Shown here one piece after another: positions 1 to 56,019 of a stretch of 64,000 nucleotides of DNA. The translations under genes were made by a program, and so were the position numbers. Within the stretch, counting starts at the first letter, position 1. Each line of letters begins with the position of its first letter. The notes beneath the pieces are model-generated. The model saw only the letters and a program-made list of their open reading frames with translations, made no database searches and was not told the origin of the DNA. Source of the DNA: an uncultured Gammaproteobacteria bacterium (GTDB lineage: Bacteria; Patescibacteriota; Microgenomatia; Levybacterales; GWA1-39-11); the NCBI GenBank assembly GCA_964485575.1, contig CAZAJO010000008.1, forward strand, positions 921-64,920, given 5' to 3'.

Positions 1-3000
1 CAACATTTCCATTTGTCCCAAGAGTTGAAACCTGAGTCAGGTTACTTAATAAGATTTGGCCGGATCCATTTGGCGCGATGGTAAGATTTTCATTTGTCCC
101 GGTTGTGATATCTGTTGATACTCCATTGAACGTTAGAGTACCTGTTGTCGTTATGGCACCAGAACTTACTGTTCCGATATTAGTAAGGTTACCTGATGCA
201 TCAATTCTTCTGACTCCATTTGTCTGGATATCTGTGACTCCATTTATTGAAGAGGCAGAAAGTGTTGCTGTTGTACCATTGTCAACGAGTGTAAGCAAAG
301 TATTTGGTGATCCTTCAGCATCCTTTATCGTTAAGGTTCCATTGTTCCCTAATGTTGAAAGCGTAATAGTTGGTGTCGTATTTGAAAGTGTCAGGGGTGA
401 GATGCCTGATAATGTGACAGTACCTGACGCGTCAAGCGTTGTTACCCCGCTTACAGCACCGGCATTTGTGATCCCACCATTATTGTTGTTAAATCCACCG
501 GTGATTGAAGCACCCCCTGCTGATACTGTTAGACCTCCGGTACTTACCGTCAAAAGCCCACCGATAGTTTGAGCAGTTGTAAAGTTATTATTTTGGCCTT
601 TGTACGCAACATTAGATAAGGTACCGGTTGTGTTTATATTGGCGCCATTAACCTGAAGTTGAGAGAGAGCATTAATTGTGTCTACTGAAAGTGTAGCAAC
701 TGTGCCGTTGTCAACGAGAGATAACAATGTATTTGGTGAACCGGCTGAGTCTTTTATAGTAAGGGTTCCAGCTGCATCTCCTGCGCCAACGGTAACAACT
801 GGATTCGTGTTTGAAAGGATGATTGGCGTAGCAGATGAGAACGTATTCGTGTTGGTGAACGTATTTGCCTGGTTAAGATACGCTACGTTTGTGAGAGTTC
901 CAGCAGTATTTATATTAAGTCCATTAAGCTGTATAGCGGTTATCGCATTGAGAACATCAGTCTGAACAGTACCAGAAGCTGTTATATTTGTAGCGCCAGC
1001 TATTGCACCCGTGTTAGTGATTCCACCTGTGTTGTTATTTATACCTCCTGTTATGTTGGCACCTCCCGCAGTCGCTACAAACCCATTAGCAGCAGTTATT
1101 GTTCCAGTTCCGGTTGTTACGATATTGCCTGAGGTCGTCAGATTGCCATTCTCATTTATGGCAAGAGTAGCCGAACCACTTGATTGGATCTGTAAAGCGT
1201 TTTGGATCGATGCATTCGTGTCATTAATGACAAGAGCTGCAGAGCCTGTTCCGGCGTTGGTTATTGTAAATTGTCTAGAGTTGAGGTTTGCAAGAGTAAA
1301 GTCAATGTTTCCTTCATTGTCTGTTGCTGAGATAGTGTTTCCGGCCTCATAAGCTTGTTGCAACGTAACATTGTTAACGTTTGCATTACACGAGGCAATT
1401 TGATTTGAAGCATTTCGACAAAGCCCTGAAGTCCCGTTAGTGCCTAAAGTAGGTACCTGTACAAGATTACTCAAAATTATTTCTCCTGTTCCATTTGGAG
1501 CAATTGTTAGATTCTCATTTGTTCCGGTCGTGATATCTGTACTCACGCCATTGAAGGTAAGCGTTCCGGTCGTAGTTATTGCACCAGAGGATACTGTACC
1601 GATATTAGTGAGGTTGCCTGAAGCGTCTATTCTTGTTGTACCATTTGTTTGTACATTTGATGAAGCATTGACTGTCCCTACAGTCAAAGTACCAACTGTT
1701 CCATTGTCTACTAATGTCAACAATGTATTAGGGGAACCGTTTGAATCATTAATCGTTAAAGTTCCAGCCGCGTTTCCGGCTCCCAAAGTTATAACCGGGT
1801 TAGTGTTTGAGAGAACAACCGGTGTTGCTGAAGAGAACGTATTCGTGTTTGTGAAAGTATTGGCTTGATTGAGATACGCAACGTTTGTGAGAGTTCCAGC
1901 TGTGTTGATGTTAGCCCCATTGAGTTGGATTGCAGTAATGGCATTTAGGATATCCGTTTGGGTAGTACCTGAAGCAGTTATATTAGTTGCACCGGTAATT
2001 GCACCAGTATTTGTTACTCCACCATTATTGTTATCGATTCCACCAGTAATTGAAGCCCCACCGGTTGTTACTGTTAAGGCTCCCCCAATGGTCTGACCAA
2101 CGGTGAAGTTATTGTTTTGACCCTTGTAAGCAACGTTTGTGAGCGTTCCAGTTGTATTGATATTAGTACCGTTGAACAAGAATCCGGTAACAGCATTTAC
2201 GCTTCCGGTAAGAGACAAGTTACCGACAGTACCTGCATCAGTCAATGAGAGCAGGGTATTTGCATCACCATCATTTATTGTAAGCGTGCTATCAACTCCA
2301 GCAGTTCCCAAAATTGCTGTTGGAGCGGCATTGGTAAGTGTTAACGGAGATGCTCCAGAAAGAGTGACTGTCCCTGAAGCGGTGATATTGGTCGCACCAG
2401 CAATAGCACCAGTATTTGTGATTCCACCGGTGTTATTGTTGATACCACCTGTTATGGATGCACCACCTGATGATACAGTCAAAAGGCCAGCGATTGTTTG
2501 ACCGACAGTGAAGTTATTGTTCTGACCCTTATAAGCAACATTTGAGAGGGTACCCGTTGTGTTGATATTTGTTCCGTTCAACAAGAATCCGGAAACTGCA
2601 TTTATTGTTCCTGAAAGCGATAGGTTTCCAACAGTCCCAGCATCTGTTAATGTCAGAAGAGTATTTGGTGAACCTTCAGCATCTTTTATTGTCAGTACCC
2701 CGTTGTTTCCGATTGTTGCAAGAGTAACAATCGGCGCGTTGTCAGAAAGTGTTACCGGATTTGCATTCGAGAATATATTATTTTGTGAGAAAGTATTTTG
2801 TTGATTCTGATAAGCGACGTTTGTGAGTGTACCAGCTGTATTGATATCTGTCCCGTTCAATTGTATGACAGACGTTGCATTGACTGTTGCTCCCTGAATC
2901 GTTCCTGAAGCAGTTATGTTGGTTGCACCAGTGATCGCCCCCGTGTTTGAGATACCACCAGTATTGTTATTAATTCCACCGGTTATTGATGCTCCACCTG

Positions 3001-6000
3001 ATGATACCGTCAAAAGACCTGCAATAGTCTGACCAACTGTGAAATTATTGTTCTGATTTCTATACGCAACGTTTGTAAGAGTACCTGCTGTGTTTATATC
3101 AACACCATTCAATTGAAGTGATGTTGTTGCACTTATTGATGATACAGATAGCGATCCACCATCACCATAGTCAGTTAATGTCAACAGATTATTTGGAGAA
3201 AGCTCAGCATCTCTTATTGTAAGGACTCCATTTGTACCCTGGGTTGCAAGTGTCACTATTGGTGATGCGTTTGAGAGTGTGAGAGGGGATACCCCTGACA
3301 ATGTGACAGTACCGGATGCAGCAATAGTTGTAGCACCTGAAATTGCACCTGCGTTTGTTAAGCCACCGGTGTTGTTATTTATCCCTCCTGTTATTGATGC
3401 ACCACCGGTCGACACAGTAAGAAGTCCAGCGATAGTTTGACCAACGGTAAAGTTATTATTCTGGTTCTTATATGCGACATTTGTGAGCGTGCCTGCGGTA
3501 TTTATACTTGTTCCGTTCAACTGGAACGCAGAAACAGCATTTATAATATCCCCCTCAATAGTTCCAGAGGCTGTGATATTGGTTGCCCCGGTTATTGCAC
3601 CGGCATTTGTTATACCACCCAAATTATTGTCAAGACCGGCAGAGATACTTGCTCCATTCGTCGCTGAAAGTAGTCCCGCAGCTGTTATTGCACCAGTTCC
3701 GGTTGTCACGATATTTCCTGAAGTCGTTAGATTTCCAAGCTCATCAATCGTCAAAGTAGAAGTTCCATTAGATTTGACATTGATAGCAATGCCTCCCGTT
3801 CCGGCAGCGGTGTCGTTGAGAATAAAGGCATTAGCTGTTCCAGCATTTGTAAGGGTGAATGATGTGGGAGAGCCAAGGCCACCTGCTAAAGTAAAGGCGA
3901 TATTTCTTCCCGTAGTTGTCGTTATAGTATTTCCATTGTCATATGCTGTCTGAAGCGTAGCGGTTGCAGCATTACAAGTAGCAATTTGGTTCAGAGCATT
4001 TCGACATAGCCCAATAGTGCCGTTCGTCCCCAAAGTTGGAACTTGTGTAAGATTGCTAAGCACAATTTGACCTGTGCCATTAGGGGTCAGTGTCAGATCT
4101 TCATTCGTACCGGTGGTTATGTCTGTCGAAACCCCATCAAAAGTAAGAGTACCGGTTGTGGTTATTGCACCCGATGAGATTGTTCCAATGTTGACCAAAT
4201 TGCCTGATGCATCAATCCTGTCTGTACCTGAGGTCTGGACTGAGGTTGTTGCATCAAGTGTCCCTCCTTGAATAGTGCCACTTGCTGTGATGTTTGTAGC
4301 TCCAGAGACGGCACCAGTGTTTGTGATTCCACCTGCATTATTATTTATTCCACCGGTAATATTAGCCCCGCCTGCACTCACCGTCAACAAACCTCCGATT
4401 GTCTGACCGACTGTGAAGTTGTTATTTTGACCCTTATAAGCGACATTTGATAGTGTTCCAGTTGTATTGATGTTTGTCCCGTTGAATTGTAGCGCTGTCG
4501 TTGCATTTACATTAGCAACAGTTAAAGTTCCGTTTGTTCCATTATCTGTTAAGGTGAGCAATGTATTTGGAGAGACTTCAGCATCTTTGATAGTGAAAAC
4601 GCCATTGTTTCCAGCTGTTGCAAGGGTAAGTACTGGCGCATTGTTTGACAACGTCAGAGGGGAAGCGCTAGATAAGGTAACAGTTCCTGAAGCATCAATT
4701 GTAGTTGCCCCGCTTATCGCCCCGGCACTTGTTATTCCGCCTGTATTGTTGTTTATTCCCCCAGTTATTGAAGCACCACCTGTTGTGACTGTAAGTGCTC
4801 CACCGATGGTCTGACCGACGGTGAAGTTATTATCCTGTCCTTTGTAGGCGACATTTGAAAGTGTTCCTGTAGTGTTAATGCTTGTTCCATTGAGAAGGAA
4901 AGCAGTAGTTGCGTTGATATTGGCTACGGCAAGAGTTGCAGTTGTACCATTATCGGTAAGAGTGAGAAGTGTATTTGGTGCTCCATTTGAATCTCTTATT
5001 GTCAGAACCCCGGCAGCATTTCCGGCTCCTAACGTCACAATAGGATTTGTATTACTAAAAGTAAGTGGACTTGCGCTTGAAAGAGTAACAGTACCTGATG
5101 CATCAATCGTGGTTGCCCCGGCAATAGCTCCGGTTCCGGTTATACCACCTGCATTATTTGCAATTCCACCGGTAATGTTTGCTCCACCGGCATTGATTGT
5201 AAGACCACCAGTTGTGATCGTCTGAAGAGCAGTGAAAGTATTGGCCTGATTTTGGTATGCAACATTTGTGAGTGTACCTGCAGTATTTATGTCTGTACCA
5301 GCAAGTTGAATAACGCTTGTTGCATTAAGAGTCGCACCTTGAATAGTGCCACTGGCTGTGATGTTAGTAGCACCTGTAATGGCGCCGGTATTGGTGATAC
5401 CACCGGTATTATTGTTGATACCCCCCGTTATTGATGCGCCACCTGATGATACAGTTAAAAGACCAGCAATTGTCTGACCTACAGTGAAATTATTGTTCTG
5501 GCCTTTGTAAGCAACGTTAGTAAGAGTACCTGTCGTATTTATATTTGCACCATTTATTTGAAGAGCAGAAAGAGCATTAACTGTCCCAACGGTAAGGGTT
5601 GCATCTGTTCCATTGTCAACCAAAGTCAACAACGTATTTGGTGAACCGGCAGAATCTTTAATAGAAAGCGTGCCATTGGCGTCTCCTGCCCCGAGTGTTA
5701 TATCTGGTGCCGAATTGGTTAACGTTATTGGCGCGGCTGATGAAAGGGTCACGGTTCCAGAAGCTGCAATTGTTGTCGCACCAGCAATTGCACCTGTGCT
5801 TGTTATGCCGCCTGCGTTATTATTGATACCACCATTGATTGATGCGCCACCAGCACTTACCGTAATACCACCAGTCGTAACAGTCAAAAGACCTCCAATT
5901 GTTTGTCCTACGGTAAAGTTATTATTTTGACCCTTGTAAGCAACGTTAGTAAGAGTACCTGTCGTATTTATATCTGTTCCTCCGAGTGTAAATCCTGTAC

Positions 6001-9000
6001 TTGCATTGACAGTTCCAACAGATAAGGTGCCGACAGTTCCATTGTCTGTGAGCGTAAGAAGTGTATTTGGAGACCCTTCAGCATCAGATATTGTCAGAGT
6101 TCCATCTGTACCTGCAGTTGCCAGCCTTATATTTGGATTTGCATTTGAAAGAGTGAGAGGTGATGACCCGGTAAGAGTTGCTGTTCCGCTTGCCGTTAGG
6201 TTTGTTATTCCTGTAATTGAACCTGTGTTTATTATTCCTCCTGAATTGTTATTAATACCACCCTTAAGGTATGCTCCTCCTGAATTAACAGTGAGAGCAC
6301 CTGCAGACGTGATTGTTCCGGTAGCAGTTGTAGTGATATTTCCGCTAGTTGAAATATTTCCAAGCTCTGAAATCGACAATTTTGAAACACCAGCAGATTG
6401 AACATCAAGAGCAACCCCTCCGGTTCCAGCATTGGTGTCATTGATGACAAATGCATTGGCAGACCCGGCATTCGTTAGAGTGAATTGAGTAGAAAGACCA
6501 GAGTCTAATGTGAAGTCAATGTTGCGTCCAGAGGTCGTAAGGATAGTGTTACCGGCATCATATGCTTGCTGTAATGTAACGGCACTTGCGTTTGCTGCAC
6601 AAGTAGAGAGTTGGTTGCTCGCGTTTCGGCAAACTGTTGTTAACCCGGTCGTTGCTGAAAGGGTAGCAACCTGGACGTAGTTGTTTAGGAGTATTTCGCC
6701 CGTTCCATTTGGTGCCAAAGTAAGGTTCTCATTTGGTCCTGTTGTGATATCGGTTGGAACTCCATTAAATGTTAAAACACCACTTGTTGTTATTGCACCT
6801 GAGCTTATTGTATTGATATTTGTCAGGTTACCGATTACATCTAATCTTGTTACTCCATTAGTTTGAATATTATTTGTAGCATTGAGGGTAGCTCCCTCAA
6901 TTGTGCCACTGGCTGTAATGTTTGTTGCACCTGTTATTGCACCGGTATTTGTGATTCCACCTGCGTTATTGTTGATGCCTCCTGTTATTGATGCACCTCC
7001 TGTTGTGACAGTAAGTGCTCCACCGATGGTTTGACCGACGGTGAAGTTGTTATCTTGACCCTTATAAGCAACGTTTGAAAGCGTACCGGTTGTATTAATG
7101 CTTGTTCCATTGAGAAGGAAAGCTGTAGTTGCGTTGATATTGGCTACGGCAAGAGTTGCAGTTGTACCATTATCGGTAAGAGTGAGAAGTGTATTTGGTG
7201 CTCCATTTGAATCTCTTATTGTCAGAACCCCGGCTGCATTTCCAGCTCCAAGTGTGATTATTGGAGTTGTATTTGAAAGGGTTAATGGCGAACCACTGGA
7301 AAGTGTTACCGTTCCAGAAGCAGCAATCGTTGTTGCACCGGCGATTGCACCGGTATTTGTTATACCACCTACATTATTGTCTATACCCCCAGTGATATTT
7401 GCTCCACCAGCACTGATGGTAAGACCGCCCGATGATATTGTTTGAAGAGCGGTGAAAGTATTGGCTTGATTTTGGTATGCAACGTTTGTGAGAGTTCCTG
7501 CTGTGTTGATATCAACTCCATTAAGTTGAATAACTGACGTACCATTAATGGTTGCTCCTTGAATAGTGCCACTGGCTGTGATGTTAGTAGCACCAGTAAT
7601 GGCGCCGGTATTGGTGATACCACCGGTATTATTGTTGATACCTCCAGTTATAGATGCTCCATCCGCACTGATAGTGAGTCCGCCGGTTGTGATCGTCTGA
7701 AGAGCCGTAAAGGTATTTGATTGATTTTGGTAAGCAACGTTTGTTAATGTACCTGCAGTGTTGATATCAACCCCACCGATCTGCAATGTCGTTCCAGCAT
7801 TTACTGATCCTGTAACAGAAAGATTCCCGACAGAACCAGCATCTGTCAAGGTTAGCAGAGTATTTGGAACACCTGCAGAATCTTTGATCGTAAATGTTCC
7901 ATTGGCATTTGCAGCACCCAATGTAACAATCGGATTCGTGTTACTAAATGTAAGAGGGGAGCCAGCAGAGAGTGTTACAAGTCCAGATGCTCCGATTGTT
8001 GTAGCACCTGAGATAGCACCAGTGTTTGTGATGCCACCTGTGTTATTGTTAATTCCTCCAGTTATTGATGCGCCACCCGTTGTAACCGTTAAAGCTCCAC
8101 CGATAGTCTGACCCACGGTGAAGTTGTTATCCTGTCCTTTGTAGGCGACATTACTAAGAGTGCCGGTTGTGTTGATGTTTGTTCCTCCTAGTAAGAATCC
8201 GTTCGCTGCATTTATTGTTCCTGTAACCGAAAGATTTCCAACTGTACCGGCATCGGTAAGAGTCAAAAGTGTATTTGGAGAACCTTCTGCATCTTTTATT
8301 GTTAATACTCCATCAACTCCAGCAGTTGCCAGAGAGATATTTGGAGTCCCGTTGGTAAGAGCAAGAGGATTTGCCCCTGACAATGTAACGACGCCTGATG
8401 CATCAATTGTTGTTGCTCCGGATATTGAAGCCGTGTTTATTATTCCGCCATTGTTGTTGTTGATACCACCAACGACTGAAAGACCACCAGCAGAAATAAT
8501 CTGTGCAGCCGTAAATGTATTTGATTGATTTTTGTATGCAACATTGGACAAAGTGCCTGCTGTGTTAATATTTGTTCCATTCAATTGAATTGCAGTAATT
8601 GCATTGAGTATATCGGTCTGAGTCGTTCCACTTGCTGTAATATTTGTAGCACCCGTAATTGCACCCGTATTTGTAATGCCTCCGGTATTATTATTAATAC
8701 CTCCAGTTATATCGGCTCCACCAGCTTGAATAGCAAGTCCCCCTGTTGTGATTGTTTGACCTGCTGTGAAAATATTAGCTTGGTTGAGATAGGCAACATT
8801 CGTAAGCGTACCTGCAGTATTTATGTTGGTTCCATTCAATAGATAACCGGTCCCAGCATTTATTGTTCCTGTGACTGAAAGATTGCCAACGGTACCGGCG
8901 TCGGTAAGTGTTAGAAGTGTGTTGGGGGAACCTGCAGAATCCCTTATTGTCAAAACACCATTCGCATTACCAGCTCCTAATGTCACTATCGGATTGGTAT

Positions 9001-12000
9001 TACTAAAAGTTAATGGAGATGCAGCAGATAAAGTAACAAGTCCTGATGCTCCAATTGTTGTTGCACCGGAGATAGCACCGGCATTTGTGATACCACCAGT
9101 ATTATTGTTGATGCCCCCGGTTATTGACGCTCCACCCGCACTTACGGTTAATGCTCCTGCTGATGTTATTGTTCCAGTTCCAGTTGTTGCGATGTTTCCA
9201 GATGTTGTGATGGTTCCAAGTTCTGTGATTGTCAAAGCTGAAGCGCTTGCAGACTGTATTTCAAATGCGATTCCACCTGATCCGGTACGTACGTCATTTA
9301 TGACAAACGCGTTCGCGCTTCCGGCATTCATGAGAGTGAAGGACGTTGGAGTTCCCGAATCCGTGTTTTCATCGTAAAGCGTAAAGTCGATATTTCGACC
9401 GGAGGTTGTAAGAATTGTATTCCCAGCATCATAAGCAAGTTGAAGCGTAACGCCATTTGAATTTGGTGCACATGCAGACAAGAAGTCACCTGCATTGCGG
9501 CACAAAGCCGTCGAGCCGTCAGGTGAAGCAAGAGTTGGAATCTGTATCGTATCATTGAGGTTGATAACTCCCGATCCATTAGCAACGAGTGTAAGATCTT
9601 CATTGCTTCCAGTTGTAATGTCTGTTGCAGCACCAGTTATAGTAACGGTTCCTGCGATATTTTGTGCAGTTGTGAAATTGTTGTTCTGGCCTTTGTAAGC
9701 AACATTTGTGAGAGTTCCGGTTGTGTTGATGCTTGTGCCATTCAATTGGAACACTGAGGTAGCATTGATAGTCGCACCTTGAATTGTGCCTGAAGCGGTG
9801 ATGTTTGTCGCTCCTGTTATTGCACCCGTGTTTGTGATACCACCGGTATTATTGTTGATGCCTCCGGTGATATTTGCACCACCAGCATTTATTGTAATAC
9901 CTCCTGTATTTATCGTCTGGCCGATGGCAAAAAGATTTGCCTGATCAAGATATGCAACGTTTGAAAGAGTTGTACCAACATTTATGTTGGTACCGTTCAG
10001 TAAAAATCCGGTTGTTGCATTGATGTTGGCAACTGCAAGTGTTGCATTTGTTCCATTATCGGTAAGTGTCAGAAGGGTATTTGGTGACCCTTGAGCATCT
10101 GCAATAGTGAGGACACCATCAACTCCGGTGGTTGCCAATGTTAGAACTGGTGCTGCATTTGAGAGAGTAAGCGGGGAAGCACCTGATAATGTCACGACAC
10201 CCGAAGCAGTGATATCTGTTACTCCAGAAATAGCTCCTGTGCTTGTTATTCCACCAGCGTTATTATTGATACCTCCGGTTATTGATGCGCCTCCGGTTGT
10301 GACGGTTAAAGCTCCACCGATGGTTTGGCCAACCGTGAAGTTGTTGTTTTGTCCTTTGTATGCGACGTTTGTGAGAGTTCCGGTTGTGTTGATGTTTGTT
10401 CCGTTCAATAGATATCCTCCAACTGCATTGATTGTTCCAGTCACTGAAAGATTTCCTACTGTACCAGTATCGGTTAATGTAAGAAGCGTGTTTGGAGAAC
10501 CCTCTCCATCTCTTATCGTGAGCGTACCATTGGATCCTGCTGCAGCCACAGTTATTGCAGAGGTGGTCGCAGTAAGTGCGAGTGGGGTACTACTTGAGAG
10601 TGTAACAAGGCCAGATGCATCAATCGTTGTTGCACTGCCAATAGCGCCGGTATTTGTTATACCTCCATTGTTGTTATTAATACCCCCAGTGACGGATAGC
10701 CCACCTGATGAGATTATTTGTGCTGCAGTGAATGTATTGGATTGATTCTTGTATGCAACATTTGTGAGAATACCTGCGGTATTTATATCAGTTCCGTTCA
10801 GCTGAAGAGCAGTAATAGCATTGATGATATCTCCCTGAATCGTTCCTGACGCAGTAATATTTGTAGCACCGGTTATAGCACCTGTGTTTGTGATACCACC
10901 AGTATTGTTGTTAATTCCACCGGTTATTGATGCGCCACCGGTTGTGACGGTTAAGGCTCCACCGATGGTTTGGCCAACTGTGAAGTTATTGTTTTGTCCT
11001 TTGTACGCAACGTTTGTGAGAGTTCCGGTTGTGTTGATGTTAGTTCCACCCAAAAGTATTCCTGTTCCTGCATTTATGGACCCTGTCACTGAAAGATTAC
11101 CTGTAGTACCGGTGTCTGTTAATGTTAGAAGGGTATTTGGAGCTCCTTCTGCATCTTTTATAGTAAGGACTCCATTCGTGCCAGCTGTAGCAAGAGTAAT
11201 TACTGGAGCACTATCTGAAAGAGTTAGAGGTGCGGCATTTGAAAGGGTCACAACTCCAGAGGCGTCAATTGAAGTTGCGCCACTTATCGCACCGGCATTT
11301 GTGATACCCCCTGCGTTGTTGTTGATACCACCGGTAACATCAAGCCCACCGGCTTGGATTGCAAGTCCCCCAGTCGTAATGATCTGACCGGCAGTGAAGG
11401 TATTTGATTGGTTTTTATATGCAACGTTTGTGAGGGTGTTTGCAGTATTTATATTTGCACCATTCAATTGAAGAGCACTTGTCGCATTGATCGTGCCAAC
11501 TGTCAAAGTTGCAACAGTTCCGTTGTCAACAAGAGTAAGAAGTGTATTTGGTGTTCCATTTGAATCTTTGATTGTAAGCGTACCGGCAGCATTTCCAGCA
11601 CCCAAAGTGATGATTGGAGTAGTGTTTGAAAGCGTAAGTGGGGAGGCTCCTGATAGCGTCACTACACCTGAAGCAGCAATTGTAGTTGCTCCGGCGATTG
11701 CACCTGTGTTTGTGATGCCACCATTATTATTGTTGATTCCACCAGAAATGTTTGCACCCCCCGCAACAACAGTTATTCCGCCGGTATTGATGGTTTGTCC
11801 CAAGGTGAATGTATTAGCAGTATCAAGGTACGCAACGTTTGATAATGTACCACCGGTATTTATATTTACACCGTTGAGTTGAATTGCTGTTATCGCATTT
11901 AATATATCTGTTTGCGTCGTTCCTGATGCAGTAATATTTGTAGCACCGGTTATGGCACCCGTGTTTGTGATGCCACCAGTGTTATTGTTAATTCCACCTG

Positions 12001-15000
12001 TTATTGAAGCGCCACCTGTTGTGACGGTTAAGGCTCCACCGATGGTTTGGCCAACAGTGAAGTTGTTGTTTTGTCCTTTGTACGCAACGTTTGTGAGAGT
12101 TCCGGTTGTGTTGATGTTTGTTCCGTTGAGTTGGAATCCACTAACAGCATTTATTGTGCCACTTATTGCAAGATTTCCAACGGTACCAGCGTCGGTAAGC
12201 GCAAGAAGGGTATTTGGTGACCCTTCTGCATCCCTGATCCTCAACACTCCATTATTTCCTGCGGTTGCAAGCGTAATATCAGGAGCACTGTTAGACAGAG
12301 TGAGTGGGGCAGCCGAGGAGAAGGTGTTGGTATTAGTAAATACGTTTGCTTGGTCTAGATAGGCAACATTTGATAGTGTTCCACCCACATTTATACTTGT
12401 TCCGTTGAGCTGGAATGCTGTCAATGCGTTGATTGTATCTCCCTGAATAGTTCCCGACGCAGTGATATTTGTTGCTCCTGTTATTGCACCGGTGTTTGTG
12501 ATTCCACCATTGTTGTTGTTGATTCCACCTGTTATTGAAGCGCCCCCCGCACTAACAGTAAGGGCACCTGCTGAGGTTATAGTTCCAGTTCCAGTTGTCG
12601 CGATGTTACCTGATGTTGATATAGTACCTAGCTCAGAAATTGTTAACGCAGAGACACTTGCAGACTGTACCTCAAAAACAATTCCACCCGATCCAACATT
12701 TGAGTCATTGATCACAAAAGCGTTTGCGCTTCCTGCATTTGTAAGTCTTAACTGAGTCGTAAGACCGGAATCAAGAGTGAAGTCGATGTTCTTTCCTGCA
12801 GTTGTAAGGATCGTATTTCCACCGTTATATGCTGATTGTAAGGTTACTCCAAATGCTGTAGGGTCACATTGTGAAAGTTCATTCGTTGCATTTTGACAAA
12901 GGACGGTAAAGCCTTGAACACCTGCAAGTATTGGAATTCCAACTGTATCGTTAAGTACAATCTTACCTGTACCATTTGCTAGCAGTGTAAGATCCTGATT
13001 TGATACTGTTGTTATATCTGTTGAAACTCCACTAAATGTAAGTGTACCTGTGGTGGTGATAGCCCCAGAAGCTATTGTTCCAATGTTGACAAGATTTCCT
13101 GATGCGTCAACCCTTTGCGTTCCATTCGTCTGTATCGAAGTTACTGCATTTAGTATATCCCCCTGGCTAGTGCCAGATGCTGTTATGTTTGTTGCTCCTG
13201 TAATTGAACCAGTGTTTGTTATACCACCTGTGTTATTGTTGATTCCACCGTTGATAGATGCCCCTCCAGCTGTAACAAATAGTCCATTAGCTGAAGTTAT
13301 CGTTCCTGAACCGATTGTCTGGATGCTATTTGAAGATGAAATGTAACCACTCGTTGAGGCATTTCCGCTTTCATCAATGGTAAGTCTTCTATTTCCACCA
13401 GACTGGATTTCAAGAGCTACTTGGTTTGGAGCGGCATTATTATCATTGATAATAAATGCCGATGCTGTTCCTTCGTTTGTTAAAGTAAGTGAGGTTGCAG
13501 CATTGAGACCGGAAGCAAGAGTAAAGTCGATGTTTCTACCCGAGTTTGTAAGAATTGTATTTCCGTTGTCATAGGATGATTGCAAGGTGCCTGCTGATGA
13601 GCCAACGTCGCAGAGAACTACTTCATCATCTCCATTAGTACAAAGAGGACTTCCAACAACAGTAACTAAGTTCTCTATGGTTACCGTACTGTTTGCTGCA
13701 AGTGTAGTGAATTTTCCTGATGAGCGCGTAGTGTTTCCGATTGGTGTATTGTCTATAGATCCTCCCGTTATAACAGCGTTACTTGAAGAGAGATTGTTTG
13801 CAGTAACTGCACCAACGAGATTTACCGTATCTGTTCCGGATCCGATATTAATAAAGTCTGGACTCGTGTTGTCTGTTCCGATATTGACGGTGTTACCGGT
13901 CGACAACGTTCCAATATTGATTGAGCCATTGGCTGATGCTCCGGCTCCTGCATTAATTGTGACTGATCCACCGGTTGATCCTCCGGCAGTAGATGTCCCA
14001 GCAACTAGTCTGAGATTTCCACCCGTAGCATCAACAGTAGAGCTTGCCGGATTGATAGTGATATCAGTTCCACCAACGAGGGTAGTAATGTCTGATGTGT
14101 TGTCTCCGGCAAGATATATAACTCCTGCCTCAGACACCTTAAGGGTTGATGCGCCATTTGACTGAAGATCAAAGAATGTACCGCCTCCCCCAGCTGATGT
14201 GTCATTGAGAATGAATGCACTTGCAGTACTTTGATTTTCCAAAGTGAAAGATGTTGGAAGATTAAGACCCGGAGCCAATGTGAATGCAATATTTCGTCCG
14301 TCATTTGTAAGGATTGTATTTCCATTATTGTATGAGGACTGAAGGGTTCCGGTTCCTGATCCTATTGAACATTTGATTATGTTATCGAATGAATCTATAC
14401 ATAGCGCAGTTCCTGAGCTTGTCGTCAAATTTTCGATAAGGACAGTGCTATTGGCAGCAAGTGTTGTGAATGCACCAGAAGAGCGGACGGTAGCACCAAC
14501 GCTCGTTCCATTTATAGTTCCTCCAGTAACAGTCACTCCGCTTGAGTTGAAGTTGTTAGCTGTAACTGACCCGACAAGGTTTATGGTGTCTAACAAAGAC
14601 CCTATATTGACAATATCGGCCAAGGTATCATTTGTTGCTATATTTATGACATTTCCCCCGGTTCCGGTTCCTATATAGATAGTCTTTGCACTATTACCAA
14701 TACCTAGATTAATGTCTCCTGTCGTTCCTGTATCAAGAGTTAGGGAATTGGAACCTGTAGCAGATATCGTTCCGACTCCAGCAAAAGTTAGATCGGTTGC
14801 ACTAACGCCAATTGTGTCAAGACTAATGACGCCCGTTAATGCTCCAAGCGTTGTGACATTTAATCCTCCGTTTGATGTGACCGCAAAAGTACCGGTAGCA
14901 TTGCCAATTGCTACATTTCCTGTTCCGGTTGTTGCGATGTTTACATCGGATGCACCTGAAGTTCCAAGATTTGTCGTACCTGTTGATGAAAGAGTTGTAA

Positions 15001-18000
15001 AGGCTCCCGTTGATGGGGTTGTTGCACCAATTGCAGTACTATTTATACCTGTTGCGGTTGCTGTGAAGTTGCCTGAAGTGATCAGTAAATTGTTGACTCC
15101 GGCATTGATAGATGATGCAGACAAACCTGAAAGACTGAGTACCCCGGAAGTTGCGGTAAGATTGATTGCCCCGGTCGTCAGGGTCAACCCATTTGATGCT
15201 GTCAAAAGACCAGCAGATGTTATAGTACCGGTTCCGGTTGTTGCTATATTTCCACTTGTTGTAAGATTTCCAAGCTCATTTATGGTCAAAGTTGCAGATC
15301 CGGAGGACTGAATCTCAAGAGCAGTATTTGTATTCTCGTTATTGTCGTTGATGATAAATGCAGAAGCTGTCCCTTGGTTTGTGAGAGTCAATGAGGTCGT
15401 CTGATCTTGACCCAATGTAAAGTCAATACTTCTTCCAGGAGTCGTTGTTATAGAGTTCCCAGTGTTGTAAGCAGCCTGCAGTCCAAATGGTGCACCGTTA
15501 CAGTACGCAAGGTTGTTACTTACGTCCAAACAAAGGGTGTTCCCATTCTGAGTCTGTAGACCATTGATCTGGATTCTCTCATTAGATGTTGTATTGAACA
15601 CTACGTTGTTACCGGTTGATGGTGTAAATACAGCAGATCCTGAAGCATCAAATGAATTTCCATTTGTGATAATCACATTTCCGTTGAAAGTAGAGATCCC
15701 AGCAACATCTAGAGTACTTCCAAGAGTAGTAGCTCCAGTCCCAACGCTAAAGGTATTGCTACCGGTGACCGTTGTATTCCCGTTCAACGAAACGTTACCG
15801 GTACCCGTGGAGAACGTGTATGCTCCAACTTGGGTAATATTATTATTGAAAGTTCCAACTCCATTGACAGTCAATGCACCTCCAAGAGTCGTAAGACCGG
15901 TTCCTACGGTAAATGTATTTGCTCCCGTTACTGATGTATTTCCATTCAGAAGAGTCAGTGCATTAATGTTGAGGTTCCCAATCCCATTTAATGGGCTTAG
16001 TGTGATTTCACCTGTTGTGTCACCACCGATGGTGAGTGCACTAAGCTCTGTGGTCTGAATAGAACGTGGTGCTCCTGCAAGTGTCAAATTACCAGAGATA
16101 GATGCATTACTGGTCGTCGTAAGCAAAGTGAAATTACCGGTTGAAGGAGTAGTTACTCCAATTGCAGTACCGTTGATACCCGTTGCGGTAGTATTGAAAT
16201 TATTTGATGTGAAAGTCAAATTGTTTCCTCCGGTGTTGATACTTGATGCAGAAAGCCCAGAAAGATTTAATGTTCCCGAAGTTGCGGTTAGATTGAGTGC
16301 TCCTGTTGTTAATGTCAGTCCGTTTGATGCTGTCAAAAGACCTGCAGAGGTTATTGTTCCAGTGCCGGTTGTAGAAATATTGCCACTAGTTGTTAGATTT
16401 CCAAGCTCATTGATAGTGAGTGTAGCAGATCCCGAGGACTGGATCTCAAGGGACGTATTGGTATTTGCATTGTTATCGTTAATGATAAATGCACTAGCTG
16501 TACCAAGGTTTGTTAGTGTGAGTGAAGTTGTCTGATCCTGACCCAATGTGAATGCCAAATTTCGTCCAGGAGTTGTCGTTATCGTATTTCCTGTATTATA
16601 TGCAGCTTGAAGTCCGAAAGGTGCTCCGTTACAGTACGCAAGGTTGTTACTTACGTCAAGACATAGAGTATTACCATTCTGAGTCTGTAGACCATTTATC
16701 TGTATCCTCTCAGTACCAGTAGTATTGAATACTACATTGTTCCCAGACGAAGGAGCAAAAACAGCAGCGCCTGAAGCGTTGAATGAATTACCTGTTGTTA
16801 TAAATACGTTACTGTTAAATGTTGCAGTGCCCGCAACATCAAGAGTGCTTCCAAGAGTTGTAGCACCGGTTCCGACAGTAAAGGTATTGGATCCGGTAAC
16901 TGAAGTGTTTCCATTGAGTGAAACATTACCAGTTCCTGTTGAGAATGTGCCTGTCCCTGTTTGGGAAATGTTGTTGGTAAATGTGCCGACTCCATTAACT
17001 GTTAGTGCTCCCCCGAGTGTTGTAAGCCCGGTTCCAACAGTTAAAGTGTTCGTACCTGTAACTGATGTATTACCGTTTAGAGTGATTGCGCCAGTTCCAG
17101 TTGTGAATGTGCTAGCACCTACCTGGCTTATGTTGTCATTAAATGTGGATACACCTAAGACATTCAATGTACCGTTGAATGCTGAATTTCCATTGACCGT
17201 AAAGTTACCTGCACCTGAAAGAGGGGATACCACAATATTTCCTGTCGTATTTCCACCAATTGTAAGAGTGTTGTTCTCGGTTGTCTGGATCGAGCGGGGA
17301 GCACCGGCAAGAGTTAGATCTCCAGAGAATGATGCAGTACCAGTTGTTGTTAGATTTGTGAAATTACCCGTCGATGGAGTAGTAGCACCGATGGCAGTGT
17401 TGTTTATGCCAGTAGCAGTGACGGTAAAATTACCGGATCCGATGAGTAAATTATTTCCTCCAAACTGTAGTGATGAAGCAGATAGACCAGACAAATTGAG
17501 TGCTCCTGATGTACCGGTGATATTAACAGCACCAGTCGTTACGCTGAGTCCGTTTGACGCTGTCAATAGCGCATTAGATGTTATAGTGCCTGTTCCGGTA
17601 GTTGCTATATTTCCACTCGTTGTAAGATTTCCAAGCTCGTTTATAGACAAAGTTGCAGATCCCGAAGACTGGATTTCAAGAGATGTATTAGTATTGGCAT
17701 TATTGTCATTGATGATAAATGCTGAAGCAGTACCCAGATTAGTCAGGGTAAGAGATGTTGTCTGATCTTGACCCAATGTAAATGCAAGGTCACGACCCGG
17801 AGTTGTCGTTATCGTGTTTCCGGTGTTGTATGCTGCTTGAAGTCCAAATGGAGCACCGTTACAGTATGCAAGATTATTGCTTACATCCAAACAAAGGGTG
17901 TTCCCATTCTGAGTCTGTAACCCATTGATTTGAATTCTTTCATTTGAGGATGTATTAAATACGACATTATTGCCGGTAGAAGGTGTAAATACAGCTGATC

Positions 18001-21000
18001 CTGAAGCATTGAATGAGTTACCAGTTGTTACAAATACGTTGCCATTAAATGTTGCTGTACTAGCAACTGTAAGCGTACTGCCCAACGTTGTCGCACCAGT
18101 TCCGACTGAGAACGTATTGCTTCCTGTGACAGATGTATTTCCATTCAAAGAAACTGTTCCAGTCCCTGTTGAGAATGTACCGGTGCCAACTTGGCTAATA
18201 TTGTTGTTGAATGTTGCAGCCCCTTGTACACTCAAAAGGCCAGTGATGTCGGTGTTACCAGCAATCTGCACAAGTCCAGTCGTATTACCACCGATAGTCA
18301 GAGTGTTAAAGTCGGTCGTCTGAATTGAGCGTGGGGCACCTGCAAGAGTCAGATTCCCAGAGAATGAGGCATTCCCCGTAGTTGTGAGTGTAGTGAAATT
18401 ACCGGTGGAAGGGGTAGTGGCTCCTATTGCAGTATTGTTGATTCCGGTCGCAGTTGTATTGAAGTTTGATGAGGTGAATGTCAGAGCATTTGCACCTGAA
18501 TCAAATGTAGACGCACCAAGTCCAGTAAGAACAATTGCGCCTGAAGAACCAGTTATGTTTACAGCTCCAGCTGTGACTGTAAGGCCATTTGAAGCAGTTA
18601 ATAATCCGTTAGATGTTATTGTTCCCCCTGAGGTTGTGAGGATATTGTCAATAGTTGAAAGAGTTCCATTCTCACTTATTGTAAGCGTAGCCGAACCACT
18701 ACTTTGAATAGACAGTGCATTTTGGATAGAAGCATTGGTGTCATTGATAACAAATGCTGCACTTCCGGTTCCGGCATTGGTGAGCAGGAACTGACGTGAT
18801 GAAAGATCAGCAAGTGTAAAGTCAATATTCCCATGAAGATCGTTAGCAACTATGGTATTTCCTGAATTGTATGCCTGCTGTAGGGTAACATTAAGAGCGT
18901 TTGATGAACAAATAGAAAGCTCGTTTGCCCCATTTCGACAAACAACTGTCGCACCAACGGTTCCTGAAAGATTTGGAATCCTTGTTATAGTATTTAGTAC
19001 TATTTGTCCCGTTCCGTCAGGTGAAAGAGTAAGATCCTCATTTGAATTGGTTGTGATATCTGTTGCAGCACCTGAGAATATGAGCCCTGTAGATCCTATC
19101 GATTTATTTGAAAGAGTCTGGGTCTGATTAGCAAAAATGAATGTGTCATCTGCAGTGAGTGCTGGAATGGTGGCAAATCTTGACGCAGAGGGAGCAAGAG
19201 ATGTGATTGTCGTAGTATTAGTCGTTCCAAGTACTACCTGGTTTGTTGTGTTTGTGAGATTTAGAGACGCAAATGTTGGCGATGATGTCGCAGCGATACT
19301 TTGAGGTAATGAAAGAGAAATAGTACCAGACCCATTAGCCACGAGAACTTGATTTGAAGTACCCGTAATAGTATTCAAACTAAACCCTGACCCATTCCCT
19401 ATGAGAAGAGCTCCATTTGGAGCAGCAGAACTATCCACCCCGGTTCCACCTCTCAAAGGTGCGAGTTGTTGTTCTGAGGCAAGAACACCTGATGCGTTAT
19501 TGATGACAACTCCAGCTGTTGTAAACGGAGATATGGTGACAGATGTATTTGCCGTAACTGTTGTGAATGCTGCAGTTGACGGAGTAGTGGCTCCAATAGC
19601 AGTGCTATTGATTCCAGTTGCCGTGACGTTTAAGTTTGCTGCTCCGATGAGTAAATTATTTCCCCCAAACTGTAGAGATGAGGCAGATAGACCTGAAAGA
19701 CTGAGGGCTCCTGACGTGCCTGTGATATTGACTGCCCCTGTCGTTACGGTAAATCCATTTTGTGCTGTAAGAAGTCCTGCGGATGTTATGGCACCGGTAC
19801 CAGTAGTCAGGATATTTCCGCTAGTCGAAAGGTTACCAACAGACGTTAAGTTTCCGTTCTCAGAGATAGTAAGAGTTGCGCTACCACTTGATTGAGCTTG
19901 GAATACATCCTGAAGTGAGGCATTCGTGTCGTTTATGACAAAAGCAGCTGACCCAGTCCCTGCATTTGTAAGCAAAAATTGACGGGATGAAAGGTCAGCA
20001 AGAGTAATGTCGATATTACCTTCACCATCGGTTGCGCTAATAGTGTTTCCTGCTTCGTAAGCCAGTTGGAGCGAAATATTAGCAGCATTTGCAGGACACT
20101 CAGTTATCTCGTTTGTTATATCATCACGGCACAAGGTGGTCGCGCTTAGTCCAGCAGCTGGAAGATTAAGTAGTTTGGTTATATTTGAAAGGACGATCTG
20201 ACCCGTTCCATCAGGGGTAATAGTAAGGTCTTGATTCGATACGGTTGTGATATCGGTCCCTACACCATTAAAGGTTAGTGACCCTGTCGCTGTGATTGCT
20301 CCCGTTGACAAGCTATTGCTTGTGATCGAACCAGTTGTTATAAGATTTCCATTCTCAGAAATCGTGAGCGTTGCTGAACCGCTACTTTGAATAGATAGAG
20401 CATTTTGGATAGAGGCATTCGTGTCGTTTATGACAAATGCTGCTGACCCAGTACCGGCATTGGTAAGGAGGAATTGGCGAGATGAAAGGTCAGCAAGAGT
20501 GAAATCGATATTACCTTCACCATCGGTTGCGCTTATAGTGTTTCCTGCTTCGTATGCCAGTTGAAGCGAAATATTAGCAGCATTTGCCGGACACTCAGTG
20601 ATTTCATGAGAAGAATCATCACGGCAAAGTGTTGTTCCACTTACACCTGCTAATGGTAAGTTCTCTAATCGTGCAATATTTGAAAGTACGATTTGACCGG
20701 TTCCATTAGGTGTAAGCGTAAGATCTTCGTTACTGACCGTAATCAGGTCATTTGCAGCTCCAGAGAACACGAGTCCTGATGCTCCAATAGTTTTGTTAGT
20801 CAACGTTTGCGTTTGTGCCGCAAAAATAAAGGTGTCATCAAACGTGAGCGCTGGAAGTGTTGCAATACGTGGAGCACCCGGTGCTGGAGAATTTATTGTT
20901 GTAGTGTTTATTGTTCCTAATGACAATTGGTTTGTCGTTGCAGCAAGTCCGAGATTTCCTGCATATGAAAGTGTCGCAGCGTTGTCTCCCGCATTATTCA

Positions 21001-24000
21001 CGAATGCCAATTGGTATGTCGGTGCAGTTGTTAAGATCTGATTTTGGAGACTGAATGTCAGGTTATTTGACGAAGCCCCATTCCAGTAGGATCCTTGTAA
21101 TGACAATAGGTTTGAATTATTCAATGTTGCTCCACTCGTTGATGTGGCAAGTCTCAAAAGAGAGAGGGTATCAACTCCTGTCTGGTCGCCGACATTAAAA
21201 GCTGTCAGAGAAGTTATCGTCGTACCATCGTCTGTAAAATTAGAATCCCCGATATTTGATCCCGTTACGGTAAACTTGGCAAGTCTATTAAGAGTTCCAG
21301 CTCCTCCGACAACTCCACCGGCTCCAGCACAGTTTCCGACAGTAAGACAGACTGTCCCGTCATAGTCTGGAATACTTATTGTCCTCAAAGTTCCAGTTGT
21401 TATTTGACTAAGATCAAATAAGAATTGCTTTGTATTATCACCGTCATCCTGGAATGTGATTGAATTATCTGTAAGTAGTTTGTTTGTTAGAGTCTGGCTT
21501 TGGTTGGCAAAGATAAATGTGTCATTTGCACTAAGTCCTGGGATCGTAGCAATCCTTGAAGCTGCTGGCGCAACCGAGGAGATAGTCGTTGTGTTCCCAG
21601 TTCCCAAAACCAATTGATTTGTTGCCGCAAGGGAAGTAAGAACTCCTGCAGTCGTTAGATTCCCGTTCTCATTAATGGTAAGAGTAGCAGAGCCACTGCT
21701 TTGAATAGATAGGGCATTTTGTACGGACGCATTTGTATCATTTATGACAAATGCAGCACTTCCTGTACCTGCGTTTGTGAGCAGGAACTGTCGTGATGAA
21801 AGATCTGCAAGAGTTAGTGAAATATCACCAAACGAGTTAGAAGCGCTGATTGTGTTTCCAGCTTCGTACGCTAGCTGAAGGGAAATGTTTGCTGCATTTG
21901 CTGGACATTCGGTGACCTGATGAGATAAATCATCGCGGCAAAGTGTCGTTGCGGCAACACCTGCGACTGGCAGGTTCTCAAGACGCGTGATATTGGAAAG
22001 AACAATCTGGCCGGTTCCATTTGGAGTAATGGTAAAGTCCTCGTTGGCAAGCGTTGAGATGTCTGTTGCAGCACCAGAGAAAACAAGACCAGTCGTACCA
22101 ATGGTCTTATTGGTGAGGGTTTGAGTTTGCTGCGCGAAAATAAATGTATCATCGACGGTAAGTGCTGGTAATGTTGCAATTCGTGGGGCAGAAGGCGCAA
22201 CCGAACTTATTGTTGTCGTGTTTCCAGATCCCAAAACCAATTGATTGGTTGCCGCTTGCGCTGTCAAAGTTGTTGCTGAAAGGATAGACCCGGTTCCGGT
22301 GGTTAGGATATTTCCCGACGTTGATAGGAGCCCATTTTCATTGATGGTAAGAGTTGCGCTACCACTGCTTTGGATAACGAGTGAATTATTGACAGAACCG
22401 CTCGTATCATTGATTACAAAAGCACTTGCTGTTCCGACGTTTGTTAGAAGGAGGGAAGTCGAAAGACCTGATCCTAATGTAAAGTCGATATTCCTATTTG
22501 CTGTTGTAGTTATCGTATTTCCTGAATCATAAGCAAGCTGCAATGAGACGTTGCTAGCATTTGCCGGACATTGTGTAATCTCGTTACTGACGTTATCACG
22601 ACAAAGGGTAGTTGCGGCAACTCCGGCAGCAGGAAGACTACCAAGTCTTACTGTATTCGAAAGAACAATTTGCCCAATCCCTGAAGCAGACAAAGTCAGG
22701 TCTTCATTGCTTGCGGTCGTTATGTCTGTGGCAGCACCTGAAAAGATAAGACCTGTAGATCCGATTGTCTTGTTACTTAATGTCTGCGTTTCGTTTGCAA
22801 ATACAAAAGTGTCTGACGCATTTAAAGCAGGTATCGTTGCTGTCCTTGGGACTGACTGTGAGTTGGAGTTTATAACAAGCGTATTACCGGCAGCACCTAG
22901 CGTAAGCTGATTACTTGTGTTTGAAAGTGTTTGCGATGCGAATGTCGGTGACGAAGTAGCGGCAATATCTTGAGGCGTAGAAAGAACAATTGTTCCACTA
23001 CCGTTCACAACATTTACCTGATTTGATGTACCTGAAATGTAATTAAGACTAAGTCCGGTACCATTGCCTATTAAAATCTGCCCAGGCAAAGCTGCTGATG
23101 TATCAAGGCCTGTTCCTCCTCGAGCCGGATTGAGTTGAGCGATAGTTGAGAAAACTCCCGAAGAATTATTGATTACAACTCCATCTGTTATGAAGCTTGA
23201 AAGAGTAAAAGCACCATTTGCCGACAGGTTAGTAAAAGCACCCGTTGAAGGGGTAGTACTACCCACAGCAGTACTGTTGATTCCGGTAGCTGTTGTGTTG
23301 AGGTTTGCTGATGTAATGAGTAAGTTATTTACTCCAGTTGATATACTTGAACCAGATAGGCCTGACAAATTAAGCGTACCTGCAGTAGCGGTAAGGTTAA
23401 GAGTGCCGGTTGTTAATGTAAGACCGTTTGATGCAGTAAGTGTTCCGGCTGAAGTAATAGTACCTGCTCCGGTTGTTAAGATATTTCCACTCGTTGACAA
23501 AATACCGTTCTCGTTGATGGTAAGTGTCGTTGAACCACCTGATTGCACTTCCAATGCATTCTGGATAGCAGCATTTGTATCATTGATAACAAGTGCTGAA
23601 GAGGCGGTTCCTGCATTTGTTAGGGTTAATGCACGGGCACTATCAGATGCCAACGTAAAGTCTAAGTTGCCGATAGAATCTGAAACGCTTATCGTGTTTC
23701 CGGAATTGTAAGCAAGTTGCAGTGAAATGCCACCAGCGTTTGCTGGACATTGAGTTATCTCGTTGCTGACGTTATCGCGACAAAGAGTTGTAGCACTTAC
23801 CCCAGGCCCTGGAAGATTTAAAAGACGGGTAGTGTTGGAAAGAACGATTTGCCCTGTCCCATTTGGAGTAATGGTGAAGTCTTCATTGGCAAGCGTTGAA
23901 ACATCAGTCGCTGCTCCTGAAAAGGTAAGGCCGGTCGCACCGATAGTCTTGTTGGAAAGAGTCTGTGTTTCATTGGCAAAGACAAATGTGTCATCCGCAG

Positions 24001-49468: not shown

Positions 49469-49501
49469 ATCAATAATACGGTCAAAGCGGAGACGATGTC
49501 A

Positions 49502-49558
49502 AGCTACGACCTGCTATTCAGGTTGCGCTACGACCTGCTATGCAGGTTGCGCTATGGA
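49502..49558. repeat. 24-nt tandem direct repeat (2.3 copies); each unit carries an ACCTG...CAGGT hairpin
   Basis: gctacgacctgctattcaggttgc / gctacgacctgctatgcaggttgc / gctatggac, lying between two pilin-like genes. Confidence 0.7.
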
Positions 49559-51168: not shown

Positions 51169-51205
51169 ACTTAAATATCAATTCTCAATTTTCAATTATC
51201 AATTT

Positions 51206-52029: not shown

Positions 52030-52069
52030 AATGTGAACATTTTTAAATTTTCAAATCTCAATTCTCAAT

Positions 52070-53355: not shown

Positions 53356-53368
53356 TCCTTAAGTATAC

Positions 53369-56010: not shown

Positions 56011-56019
56011 ATTAAGTCA

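Follow-up and report, generated by a model that had tools for sequence, protein, structure and literature searches.

A giant gene downstream of the ATP synthase operon

We analyzed a 64,000-nucleotide (nt) stretch of contig CAZAJO010000008.1 (assembly GCA_964485575.1, positions 921 to 64,920), hereafter the window, whose left end carries an array of repeats that a preliminary description had called family A and placed at 100-13350. These repeats are the distal half of one giant chromosomal gene in Candidatus Levybacteria, which belong to the candidate phyla radiation (CPR; also called Patescibacteria). In a six-frame scan, a minus-strand frame runs without a stop from position 26194 to nt 2 (8,731 codons), and the giant open reading frame (ORF) within it, at 2..26113 on the minus strand, comprises at least 8,704 codons from its first ATG at 26113 and is open at the window's left edge. 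Read in the minus-strand frame, paralogous stretches of this ORF are identical at codon positions 1/2/3 in fractions of 0.92/0.92/0.61, which is the signature of a translated minus-strand gene. The plus-strand ORFs listed over 78-25193 are antisense shadows inside it; two of them, at 4872..5225 and 7098..7445 (plus strand), had been described as antisense from the start, and their substitutions, which fit the minus-strand frame, bear this out: neither is a gene. With a probability of roughly 0.6, we read the giant gene as encoding a membrane-anchored surface fiber, with a repeat array that is old, conserved and patchily converted.

Upstream of the giant gene, on the same strand, lie atpA, atpG, atpD and atpC, and this order leading into the giant gene is kept in seven other loci (L001-L005, L011 and L014), with AtpD 81-96% identical. 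Given this fixed chromosomal position across the Levybacteria clade, the gene must matter to the cell. At 93% identity, the window's GyrB matches proteins named Candidatus Levybacteria; its other named matches are Microgenomates or Patescibacteria, and GyrB proteins of 97% identity (P0083 and P0084) are encoded on contigs of 126-128 kb. The records of L003, L004 and L005 are titled "uncultured Gammaproteobacteria bacterium," and both the ATP synthase genes and the giant gene in them share 76-99% identity with the window; with GyrB pointing to Candidatus Levybacteria, these titles look like mislabels.

The full extent of such a gene can be reconstructed from two loci of metagenome Ga0209515 that share 116 identical overlapping bases (L010:1-116 and L011:18793-18908). 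L011 provides the N-terminal 6,066 amino acids (aa) and L010 a further 5,372 aa ending in a stop, and the joined homologue is complete at about 11,400 aa (about 34 kb), so that the gene in the window is probably several thousand codons longer than its visible part. The last 1,405 aa of L010 are without the repeat modules described below (W, X, Y, and Z) and contain a Fn3-like stretch and a short coiled-coil-like stretch.

Modular grammar of the repeats

Family A extends from ORF residue 4283 to the window edge (2..13348, minus strand), as delimited by a motif scan, segmentation at a recurring NVAY anchor and an architecture string from hidden Markov models; the end near 13350 given earlier was accurate, whereas the start at 100 was arbitrary, the region being cut by the window edge. 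A 60-aa motif quoted in the preliminary description occurs 26 times, at ORF residues 4283-8533 (nt 13348 down to about 600). Both of the periodicities proposed for the region, of ~400 nt and ~2.2 kb, are present as autocorrelation peaks above shuffled controls. The protein autocorrelation from residue 4283 peaks at 740, 876, 137, 359, and 221 aa (top value 0.187, vs. a maximum of 0.134 in 20 shuffles), and that of the DNA at 411, 2220, 2628, 1722, 663, 408, and 1077 nt. Positions 1-26200 contain 2,344 shared 12-mer pairs, with 2,220 nt as the commonest offset; a control stretch of equal length within the window has 108. Tandem Repeats Finder reported no ~400-nt or other long-period array, because the units are irregular and only 65-80% identical.

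Cut at the NVAY anchor, family A resolves into a grammar of sub-modules X, Y, and Z and not into a simple 133-aa tandem. The ~133-aa module said to repeat every ~400 nt does recur, as the 411-nt peak attests, but its spacing is irregular, with unit lengths of 84-143 aa interspersed with units that contain W. The X module has 58 aa (NVAYKGQNNNFTVGQTIGGALTVTTGGASITGGINNNTGGITNTGAITGATNITASGT), Y has 51 aa (VTLSGASPLTLSN..P.VTLG...G.LTIKD..GSPNTLLTLTDNGT) and Z has 27 aa, with the C-terminal end ..LNGTNINTAGTLT. They combine into XZ units of 84-85 aa (8 copies), XYZ units of 131-143 aa (12 copies), and YZ units of 92-93 aa (3 copies), which lack the Gly/Asn-rich part of X; units often follow one another as XZ-XYZ-XYZ, a run of 359 aa or 1,077 nt. 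Examples on the minus strand are an XYZ unit of 137 aa (411 nt) at 4856..5266, corresponding to the ~133-aa module of the preliminary description, an XZ unit of 84 aa (252 nt) at 5267..5518 with the exact motif quoted there, and a YZ unit of 93 aa (279 nt) at 2543..2821.

Four other NVAY-anchored units, of 302-376 aa, contain W, a module of ~140 aa in which an invariant Cys-x9/10-Cys loop is followed by LQxAYxxGNTI, INDxN, and ExG motifs. W interrupts the array every 850-1,130 aa, and the W-to-W distances in family A are 877, 876, and 854 aa; the natural super-unit therefore measures about 2.6 kb and not the 2.2 kb first proposed. The W domains of the family A region lie on the minus strand at 12614..13033 (the copy with Cys 4433), 9218..9637 (Cys 5565), 6347..6766 (Cys 6522), 3722..4141 (Cys 7397), and 1136..1555 (Cys 8259). 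W is not specific to family A, since 16 copies are spread across residues 805-8259; it is the constant node of the whole protein, and expansion of X(Y)Z between the nodes marks the distal half. The proposal of an intragenic modular repeat with higher-order structure thus holds, in the form of XZ, XYZ, and YZ units between W domains. The predicted ectodomain as a whole, of more than 8,600 aa, is rich in Thr, Gly, Asn, Ala, and Ser (19% Thr, 15% Gly, 13% Asn) and has about 5% charged residues. In the proximal half (13350-24300, minus strand) we observed other repeat families, with periods of 1131, 1230, 2361, 495, and 1314 nt and 72-80% identity, together with 11 further W domains.

Fold of the repeat units

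None of the library searches assigned the repeats to a described family. A Pfam scan of the whole ORF in four pieces (E<=0.01) found no beta-helix, hemagglutinin-repeat, or pectate-lyase family, NCBIfam gave nothing, no Pfam, NCBIfam, or PHROG match was credible for the repeats, and profile searches of the PDB with two queries (A1 and A2) returned nothing at E<=0.1. Profiles from Pfam and NCBIfam likewise detected no Ig-like, cadherin-like, or RTX repeats, and no YadA-type C-terminal anchor or Hep_Hag/HIM match to Pfam was found in the window ORF or the L010 C-terminus. Sub-threshold or multi-fragment matches to DUF4251, OB_YrrC, AnkUBD, LysM1, and FtsX_actino were set aside as compositional noise, as none has an individually significant stretch; the DUF4251 match (window 17000-23113, minus strand) sums to 40.8 bits over the piece (cut-off 27) with no single significant stretch and was taken as an artifact.

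The preliminary description expected structure prediction to give a beta-solenoid. None was obtained, which is not a refutation: for XYZ-XZ-XYZ with a 15-row alignment, AlphaFold2 returned a predicted local distance difference test score (pLDDT) of 58.6 and a predicted template-modeling score of 0.33, with two short strands only. The model of W reached a pLDDT of 60, with residues 120-210 at 73-82 and without intrachain secondary structure, and a Foldseek search with this low-confidence model found no match at E<=0.001. As a structural alternative within the surface-fiber explanation, a monomeric beta-solenoid of X(Y)Z units, as opposed to a multi-chain (for example, trimeric) fiber, is possible but in our judgment doubtful. 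The short Gly-x-x-I-T-type repeats of X, with a period of about 7 residues, and the alternating hydrophobic patterns of Y and W are compatible with stacked beta-turns. Against a solenoid stand the missing beta-helix, hemagglutinin, and pectate-lyase families in Pfam, the near absence of secondary structure from the AlphaFold2 monomer, including the better-scored stretch of W, and the co-occurrence of an X-like module with an intramolecular chaperone, in a protein (P0011) that combines the X-like module with a Peptidase_S74 chaperone and an H-type lectin domain. Extended monomer models are typical of AlphaFold2 for chains that pair with other chains, and the S74 chaperone is reported to be specific to trimeric fibers. 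The giant protein also has an ~80-aa N-proximal domain (residues about 401-484) that is common to Patescibacteria proteins named "tail fiber domain-containing," and this shared domain and the S74 context of P0011 are hints that favor a multi-chain fiber. Pfam detected no Peptidase_S74 in the window part of the gene, which excludes the C-terminus, and no Pfam or PHROG family was found in the last 1,500 aa of L010.

Age of the array and gene conversion between units

Old and kept by selection, the repeat array shows recent copying between units only in short patches. Successive units in the window measure 93, 84, 137, 138, 84, 131, 136, 85, 302, 85, 131, 137, 85, 137, 376, 143, 84, 137, 136, 322, 136, 84, and 93 aa and onward, and the unit lengths of L011 match this series unit for unit with the exception of the 143-aa unit, while the two proteins are only about 55% identical. 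Since the order of units is colinear at this level of divergence, the array predates the split between the two organisms. The exceptional XYZ unit of 143 aa (5519..5947, minus strand) is without a positional counterpart in L011, and its best paralogue is only 74% identical.

The preliminary description held whole super-units of ~2.2 kb to be nearly identical, but the measured identities contradict this. Positions 4500-6719 are 48% identical, without gaps, to the sequence 2,220 nt further on, and with gaps allowed, the best pair (4704-6262 vs. 6924-8470) has 72.9% identity over 1,570 nt. The core of this best paralogous pair, 4727..5473 and its partner 6947..7693 (minus strand, 747 nt, offset 2,220 nt), reaches 81.7% nucleotide and 90% amino acid identity with third codon positions 61% identical, and the codon differences comprise 85 synonymous vs. 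24 non-synonymous changes; synonymous sites are far more diverged than amino acids, and the copies are therefore old and under purifying selection. The shadow ORF at 4872-5225 is 82.8% identical to its partner at +2220. Inside the two shadow ORFs that had been compared lies an exact tract of 110 nt (4905..5014, equal to 7125..7234), and it was probably this tract that gave the impression of near-identity.

The tract is itself informative, as a candidate for a recent gene-conversion event. It is the longest exact repeat in 1-26200, the next longest having 53 nt, and with a background of 39% differing third positions, permutation gave a mean longest run of 25 and a maximum of 61 in 20,000 trials (P<5e-5). 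In the core pair, third-position differences cluster in blocks, and together with the 110-nt perfect run this is the pattern expected of gene-conversion tracts of different ages, the youngest of them recent. Comparison with L011 adds to this picture: the positional orthologue is the best L011 match for all three W and both YZ units and for only five of the 12 XYZ units, XZ units have a mean similarity of 0.80 within the window vs. 0.64-0.81 to their positional orthologues in L011 (most of which are less alike), and identity between the units at aa 6237 and 6977 is 92% in the window, compared with 66% for the corresponding pair in L011. Gene conversion thus homogenizes the units in patches, and now and then an entire unit is gained or lost.

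Gain and loss of units is seen against the close relative L003 (about 92% aa identity in a global alignment), where one unit of 410 aa is the only large difference in 4,000 residues. This super-unit of 1,230 nt (16106..17335, minus strand), absent from L003, belongs to the same gene outside family A, and it is no fresh duplicate because it is only 74-76% identical to its neighbors at the nucleotide level. Copy number accordingly changes on a between-species time scale. The L003 locus, on contig CAZDED010000003.1 (138.5 kb), covers the orthologue up to residue 4060, a little short of family A. Within a single population, represented by L012 and L014 vs. L011 from different samples and assemblies, the sequences show 99.9% identity and 0-2 gaps across 11-14.6 kb of the gene.

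That the 2.2-kb super-units are recent intragenic duplications, with copy number in rapid recombination-driven flux, is therefore unlikely, even though the 2,220-nt offset is the strongest autocorrelation peak for DNA and protein, a 110-nt tract is perfect and a whole-unit indel separates the gene from that of L003 elsewhere along its length. The 73% identity over 1.57 kb, the third positions identical at 61% of sites, the positional counterparts of both copies in L011, the agreement of the three L011-population assemblies, and the divergence of extra units from their neighbors all argue against it. The earlier claim of recent duplication fails on the ratio of synonymous to non-synonymous differences, on the unit order shared with a ~55% identical homologue and on the agreement of the L011-population assemblies; that recombination occurs between units is borne out by the conversion tract and the 410-aa difference from L003. 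For genome scanning, the case serves as a calibration: strong protein-level repetition with diverged synonymous sites marks an old array under selection, and not recent duplication.

Assembly of the repeat region

The preliminary description also flagged the repeats as an assembly hazard, and the hazard is real, in that orthologous contigs end within the gene. This is the case for L004, L005, L010, L011, L012, L013, and L014; the L001 gene extends to the contig end and is divided between reading frames, and in L002 it is broken into many short ORFs. Two further proteins, P0001 and P0004 (L008:102-1061), have housekeeping N-termini (asparagine-synthase-like and peptidyl-tRNA-hydrolase-like) fused directly to X/Z/W repeats and are probably chimeric short-read contigs. 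Such breaks and chimeras, and the fact that unit lengths are multiples of three, so that in-register mis-joins would keep the frame, could suggest that the array or its unit count is an artifact of mis-joined or collapsed repeats in a short-read assembly. We consider this very improbable: the longest exact repeats, of 110 and 53 nt, fall below the usual read length, an independent organism has the same order of 23 units with one unit excepted, and independent assemblies of the L011 population agree without indels. With exact repeats of at most 110 nt, an intact frame and unit order colinear with L011, serious mis-assembly of the window array is unlikely, and the practical hazard is contig fragmentation and not collapsed copy number.

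A helix-turn-helix domain and a putative membrane helix at the N-terminus

The giant protein begins with a MerR/HTH_17-type helix-turn-helix (HTH) domain (25949..26113, minus strand), identified by Pfam and predicted to be cytoplasmic. The isolated first 70 aa match HTH_17 with 29.3 bits (cut-off 27) and MerR_1 with 24.5 bits (cut-off 21.6), and MerR_1 is matched by seven of eight orthologous N-termini. A PDB profile search with the N-terminal query (A4) gave weak MerR matches at E of about 0.01; its top matches, designed repeat proteins (dTor), were discounted as helical-repeat artifacts. Behind the HTH follows a single putative transmembrane anchor, KTLVLGVLASALFVTGVFA (25766..25822, minus strand; residues 98-116), which has a Kyte-Doolittle value of 1.9 in a 19-residue window, while every other window across the 8,704 aa stays below 1.6. 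The HTH-then-helix start is kept in the orthologues L003, L005, P0012, and P0017-P0019, and it is an odd anchor for a surface fiber. In the literature searched, we found neither this protein family nor the HTH-anchor architecture described.

A similar start was observed in two large non-orthologous proteins on metagenome contigs, of 3,371 aa and more than 1,199 aa (L032:1104-1900 and L024:7907-8700), in which a hydrophobic helix follows one or two N-terminal MerR-type HTHs (75 and 31 bits). This suggests that HTH plus helix may be a general, undescribed anchoring or signaling module of large surface proteins.

A bolder idea is that the protein is a membrane-tethered MerR-type DNA-binding protein whose ectodomain of 8,700-11,400 aa acts as a contact or tension sensor, in which binding or pulling of the fiber (for example, during host docking) would signal to the cytoplasmic HTH through proteolytic release or clustering. 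If true, attachment would be coupled to gene expression or chromosome anchoring; we regard this idea as highly speculative and give it little credence.

Relatives and genomic surroundings

The modules are rare. A 518-aa query spanning W, X, Y, and Z retrieved 11 proteins among 5.8 billion, in a search whose scoring was limited to the 8,000 candidates that had the most words in common with the query; among 1.84 billion representatives, only 205 proteins, most of them fragments, matched a five-super-unit profile at E<=1e-3. The Y module occurs in 12 of the 153 module-carrying match proteins (223 scanned). Other large proteins have W, X, or Z as isolated modules, but Y and dense X(Y)Z arrays hardly occur outside the orthologues of the giant gene. 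In an IMG/VR contig that also encodes a serine recombinase, a 964-aa ORF (L009:3228-6119) with a weak laminin-G match carries the Z-to-NVAY junction motif twice (..LNG.D/NIN..GTL.NVAYK.QDN.FT..QTF); the short junction module therefore also occurs outside the giant-gene family.

An origin of the gene as a phage tail-fiber gene or prophage remnant, and not as a cellular surface protein, may be brought to mind by that viral contig and by the short N-proximal domain and X-like modules shared with tail-fiber-annotated proteins carrying Peptidase_S74, but it is extremely unlikely given a position after the ATP synthase operon that is kept in eight loci with AtpD identities of 81-96%, repeats with no PHROG match, neighbors that are housekeeping and type IV pilus genes with no phage genes nearby, and an N-terminal membrane anchor and a length of 8,700-11,400 aa that are unlike virion fibers.

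Elsewhere, the window encodes PBP1, TyrRS/TrpRS, RecG, RNase III, TrmD, a type IV pilus cluster, and GyrB; neither Rfam nor a tRNA scan returned anything in the window. The G+C content is 43-46% in the giant gene and 35-42% in the flanking genes (window 1-26000 vs. 26000-64000), a difference that is due to the Gly/Ala/Thr codon content and is therefore no evidence of horizontal transfer. The pilus cluster (47565-60804) comprises PilM, a weak PilX_N-like (pilin-like) protein, a prepilin peptidase, PilB, PilT, and PilC. Within the same stretch lies a PMT/TMEM260-like glycosyltransferase (53369-55393), which could glycosylate the Thr-rich fiber, and a GH130 gene is found at 35660-36673.

Predicted function

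In the surface-fiber reading, the HTH would lie in the cytoplasm, the helix would anchor the protein in the membrane, and the repeats would form a long extracellular fiber, with X(Y)Z units as a length-setting shaft and binding modules and W domains as disulfide-stabilized nodes. Such a fiber may bring the cell into contact with other cells or surfaces or attach it to them, as would be expected of an episymbiotic CPR cell. This proposal draws on the composition of the ectodomain, with charged residues below 5%, on the S74 and lectin context of the X-like module in P0011, and on the N-proximal domain common to proteins named for tail fibers. Giant bacterial proteins are generally linked to adhesion (10.1101/2023.11.21.568195), and all cultivated Patescibacteria are obligate episymbionts (PMC12206443).

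Several points weigh against this interpretation. Expression, surface location, and binding of the fiber are predicted only, membrane topology is taken from a hydrophobicity plot only, and the charges flanking the helix (KPTKK before it, R..K after it) do not fix the orientation. The C-terminus of the window's gene lies outside the window, and the 1,405-aa C-terminal region of L010 has no Pfam, PHROG, or PDB match. The low-confidence AlphaFold2 models of XYZ-XZ-XYZ and of W described above do not help the case, and the comparison with the closer relative, in which recent copy-number variation would show, stops before the family A array.

CPR genomes have about 1 Mb, and at that size a gene of at least 26 kb (about 34 kb in the reconstructed homologue) would take up a few percent of the coding capacity. 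Its importance most plausibly lies in contact with a host or a surface. W, X, Y, and Z are rare and have no counterpart in the curated libraries of families and structures that were searched, which makes them a clean target for structure work and for the definition of a new repeat family.

Comparison with known systems

Giant repetitive surface adhesins and fibers include Ebh of Staphylococcus, SiiE, and the LapA/MpIBP-type RTX adhesins. Like these, the protein described here is one polypeptide of many thousand residues with tandem modules and higher-order super-repeats, is anchored at one end with its bulk presumed extracellular, and has repeats that evolve by unequal recombination and conversion in a gene that fragments assemblies. 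It differs in lacking any sequence relationship to them, with no Ig-like, FIVAR/GA, RTX, or other Pfam repeat, in a composition extremely poor in charged residues, and in its anchor, which is an N-terminal HTH plus helix where the known adhesins have a signal peptide with a C-terminal anchor or a type I secretion signal.

Closer to hand are the Patescibacteria proteins named "tail fiber domain-containing" or "beta strand repeat-containing" (P0011 and P0038-P0042), some of which have a C-terminal Peptidase_S74. They share with the giant protein the ~80-aa N-proximal domain, isolated X, Z, or W modules and a Thr/Gly/Asn-rich style; however, they are 400-1,100 aa long, dense X(Y)Z arrays and Y being the near-exclusive property of the giant-gene orthologues, and, unlike the S74-bearing members, neither the window nor the final 1,500 aa of L010 showed an S74 domain.

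In the Dockerin-type and Archaeovorin giants of Omnitrophota, the length is 30,000 aa or more and dockerin, thrombospondin-3, or enzymatic domains are present; the Archaeovorins also have many transmembrane helices (10.1101/2023.11.21.568195). Similarly to the protein studied here, the Omnitrophota giants are repeat-rich, predicted to be membrane-associated and largely extracellular, with a proposed role in attachment and assemblies that break in the repeats (10.1101/2023.11.21.568195). The Levybacteria protein, from another phylum, differs from them in its single helix, its about 9-11 thousand aa and the absence from the Pfam results of dockerin, thrombospondin-3, SecA-DEAD, peptidase, or other enzymatic domains. 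With MerR-family regulators it shares an N-terminal 50 residues that match MerR_1 and HTH_17 above the Pfam cut-offs, whereas the coiled-coil dimerization helix and effector-binding domain of those regulators are replaced by a variable linker, a membrane helix and the giant ectodomain.

We therefore do not place the protein among RTX/Ig-repeat adhesins, trimeric autotransporters, S74-type tail fibers, canonical MerR regulators, or Omnitrophota giants, as defining features of these groups were not found in the parts of the gene covered, nor, on sequence matches, among beta-helix families. The protein is best filed as a lineage-restricted giant surface fiber with modules uncatalogued in the libraries searched and an unusual HTH-plus-helix anchor. 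The repeats themselves are ordinary for a giant surface protein; what sets this one apart is the size of its gene relative to a CPR genome, the novelty of its modules and its HTH anchor.

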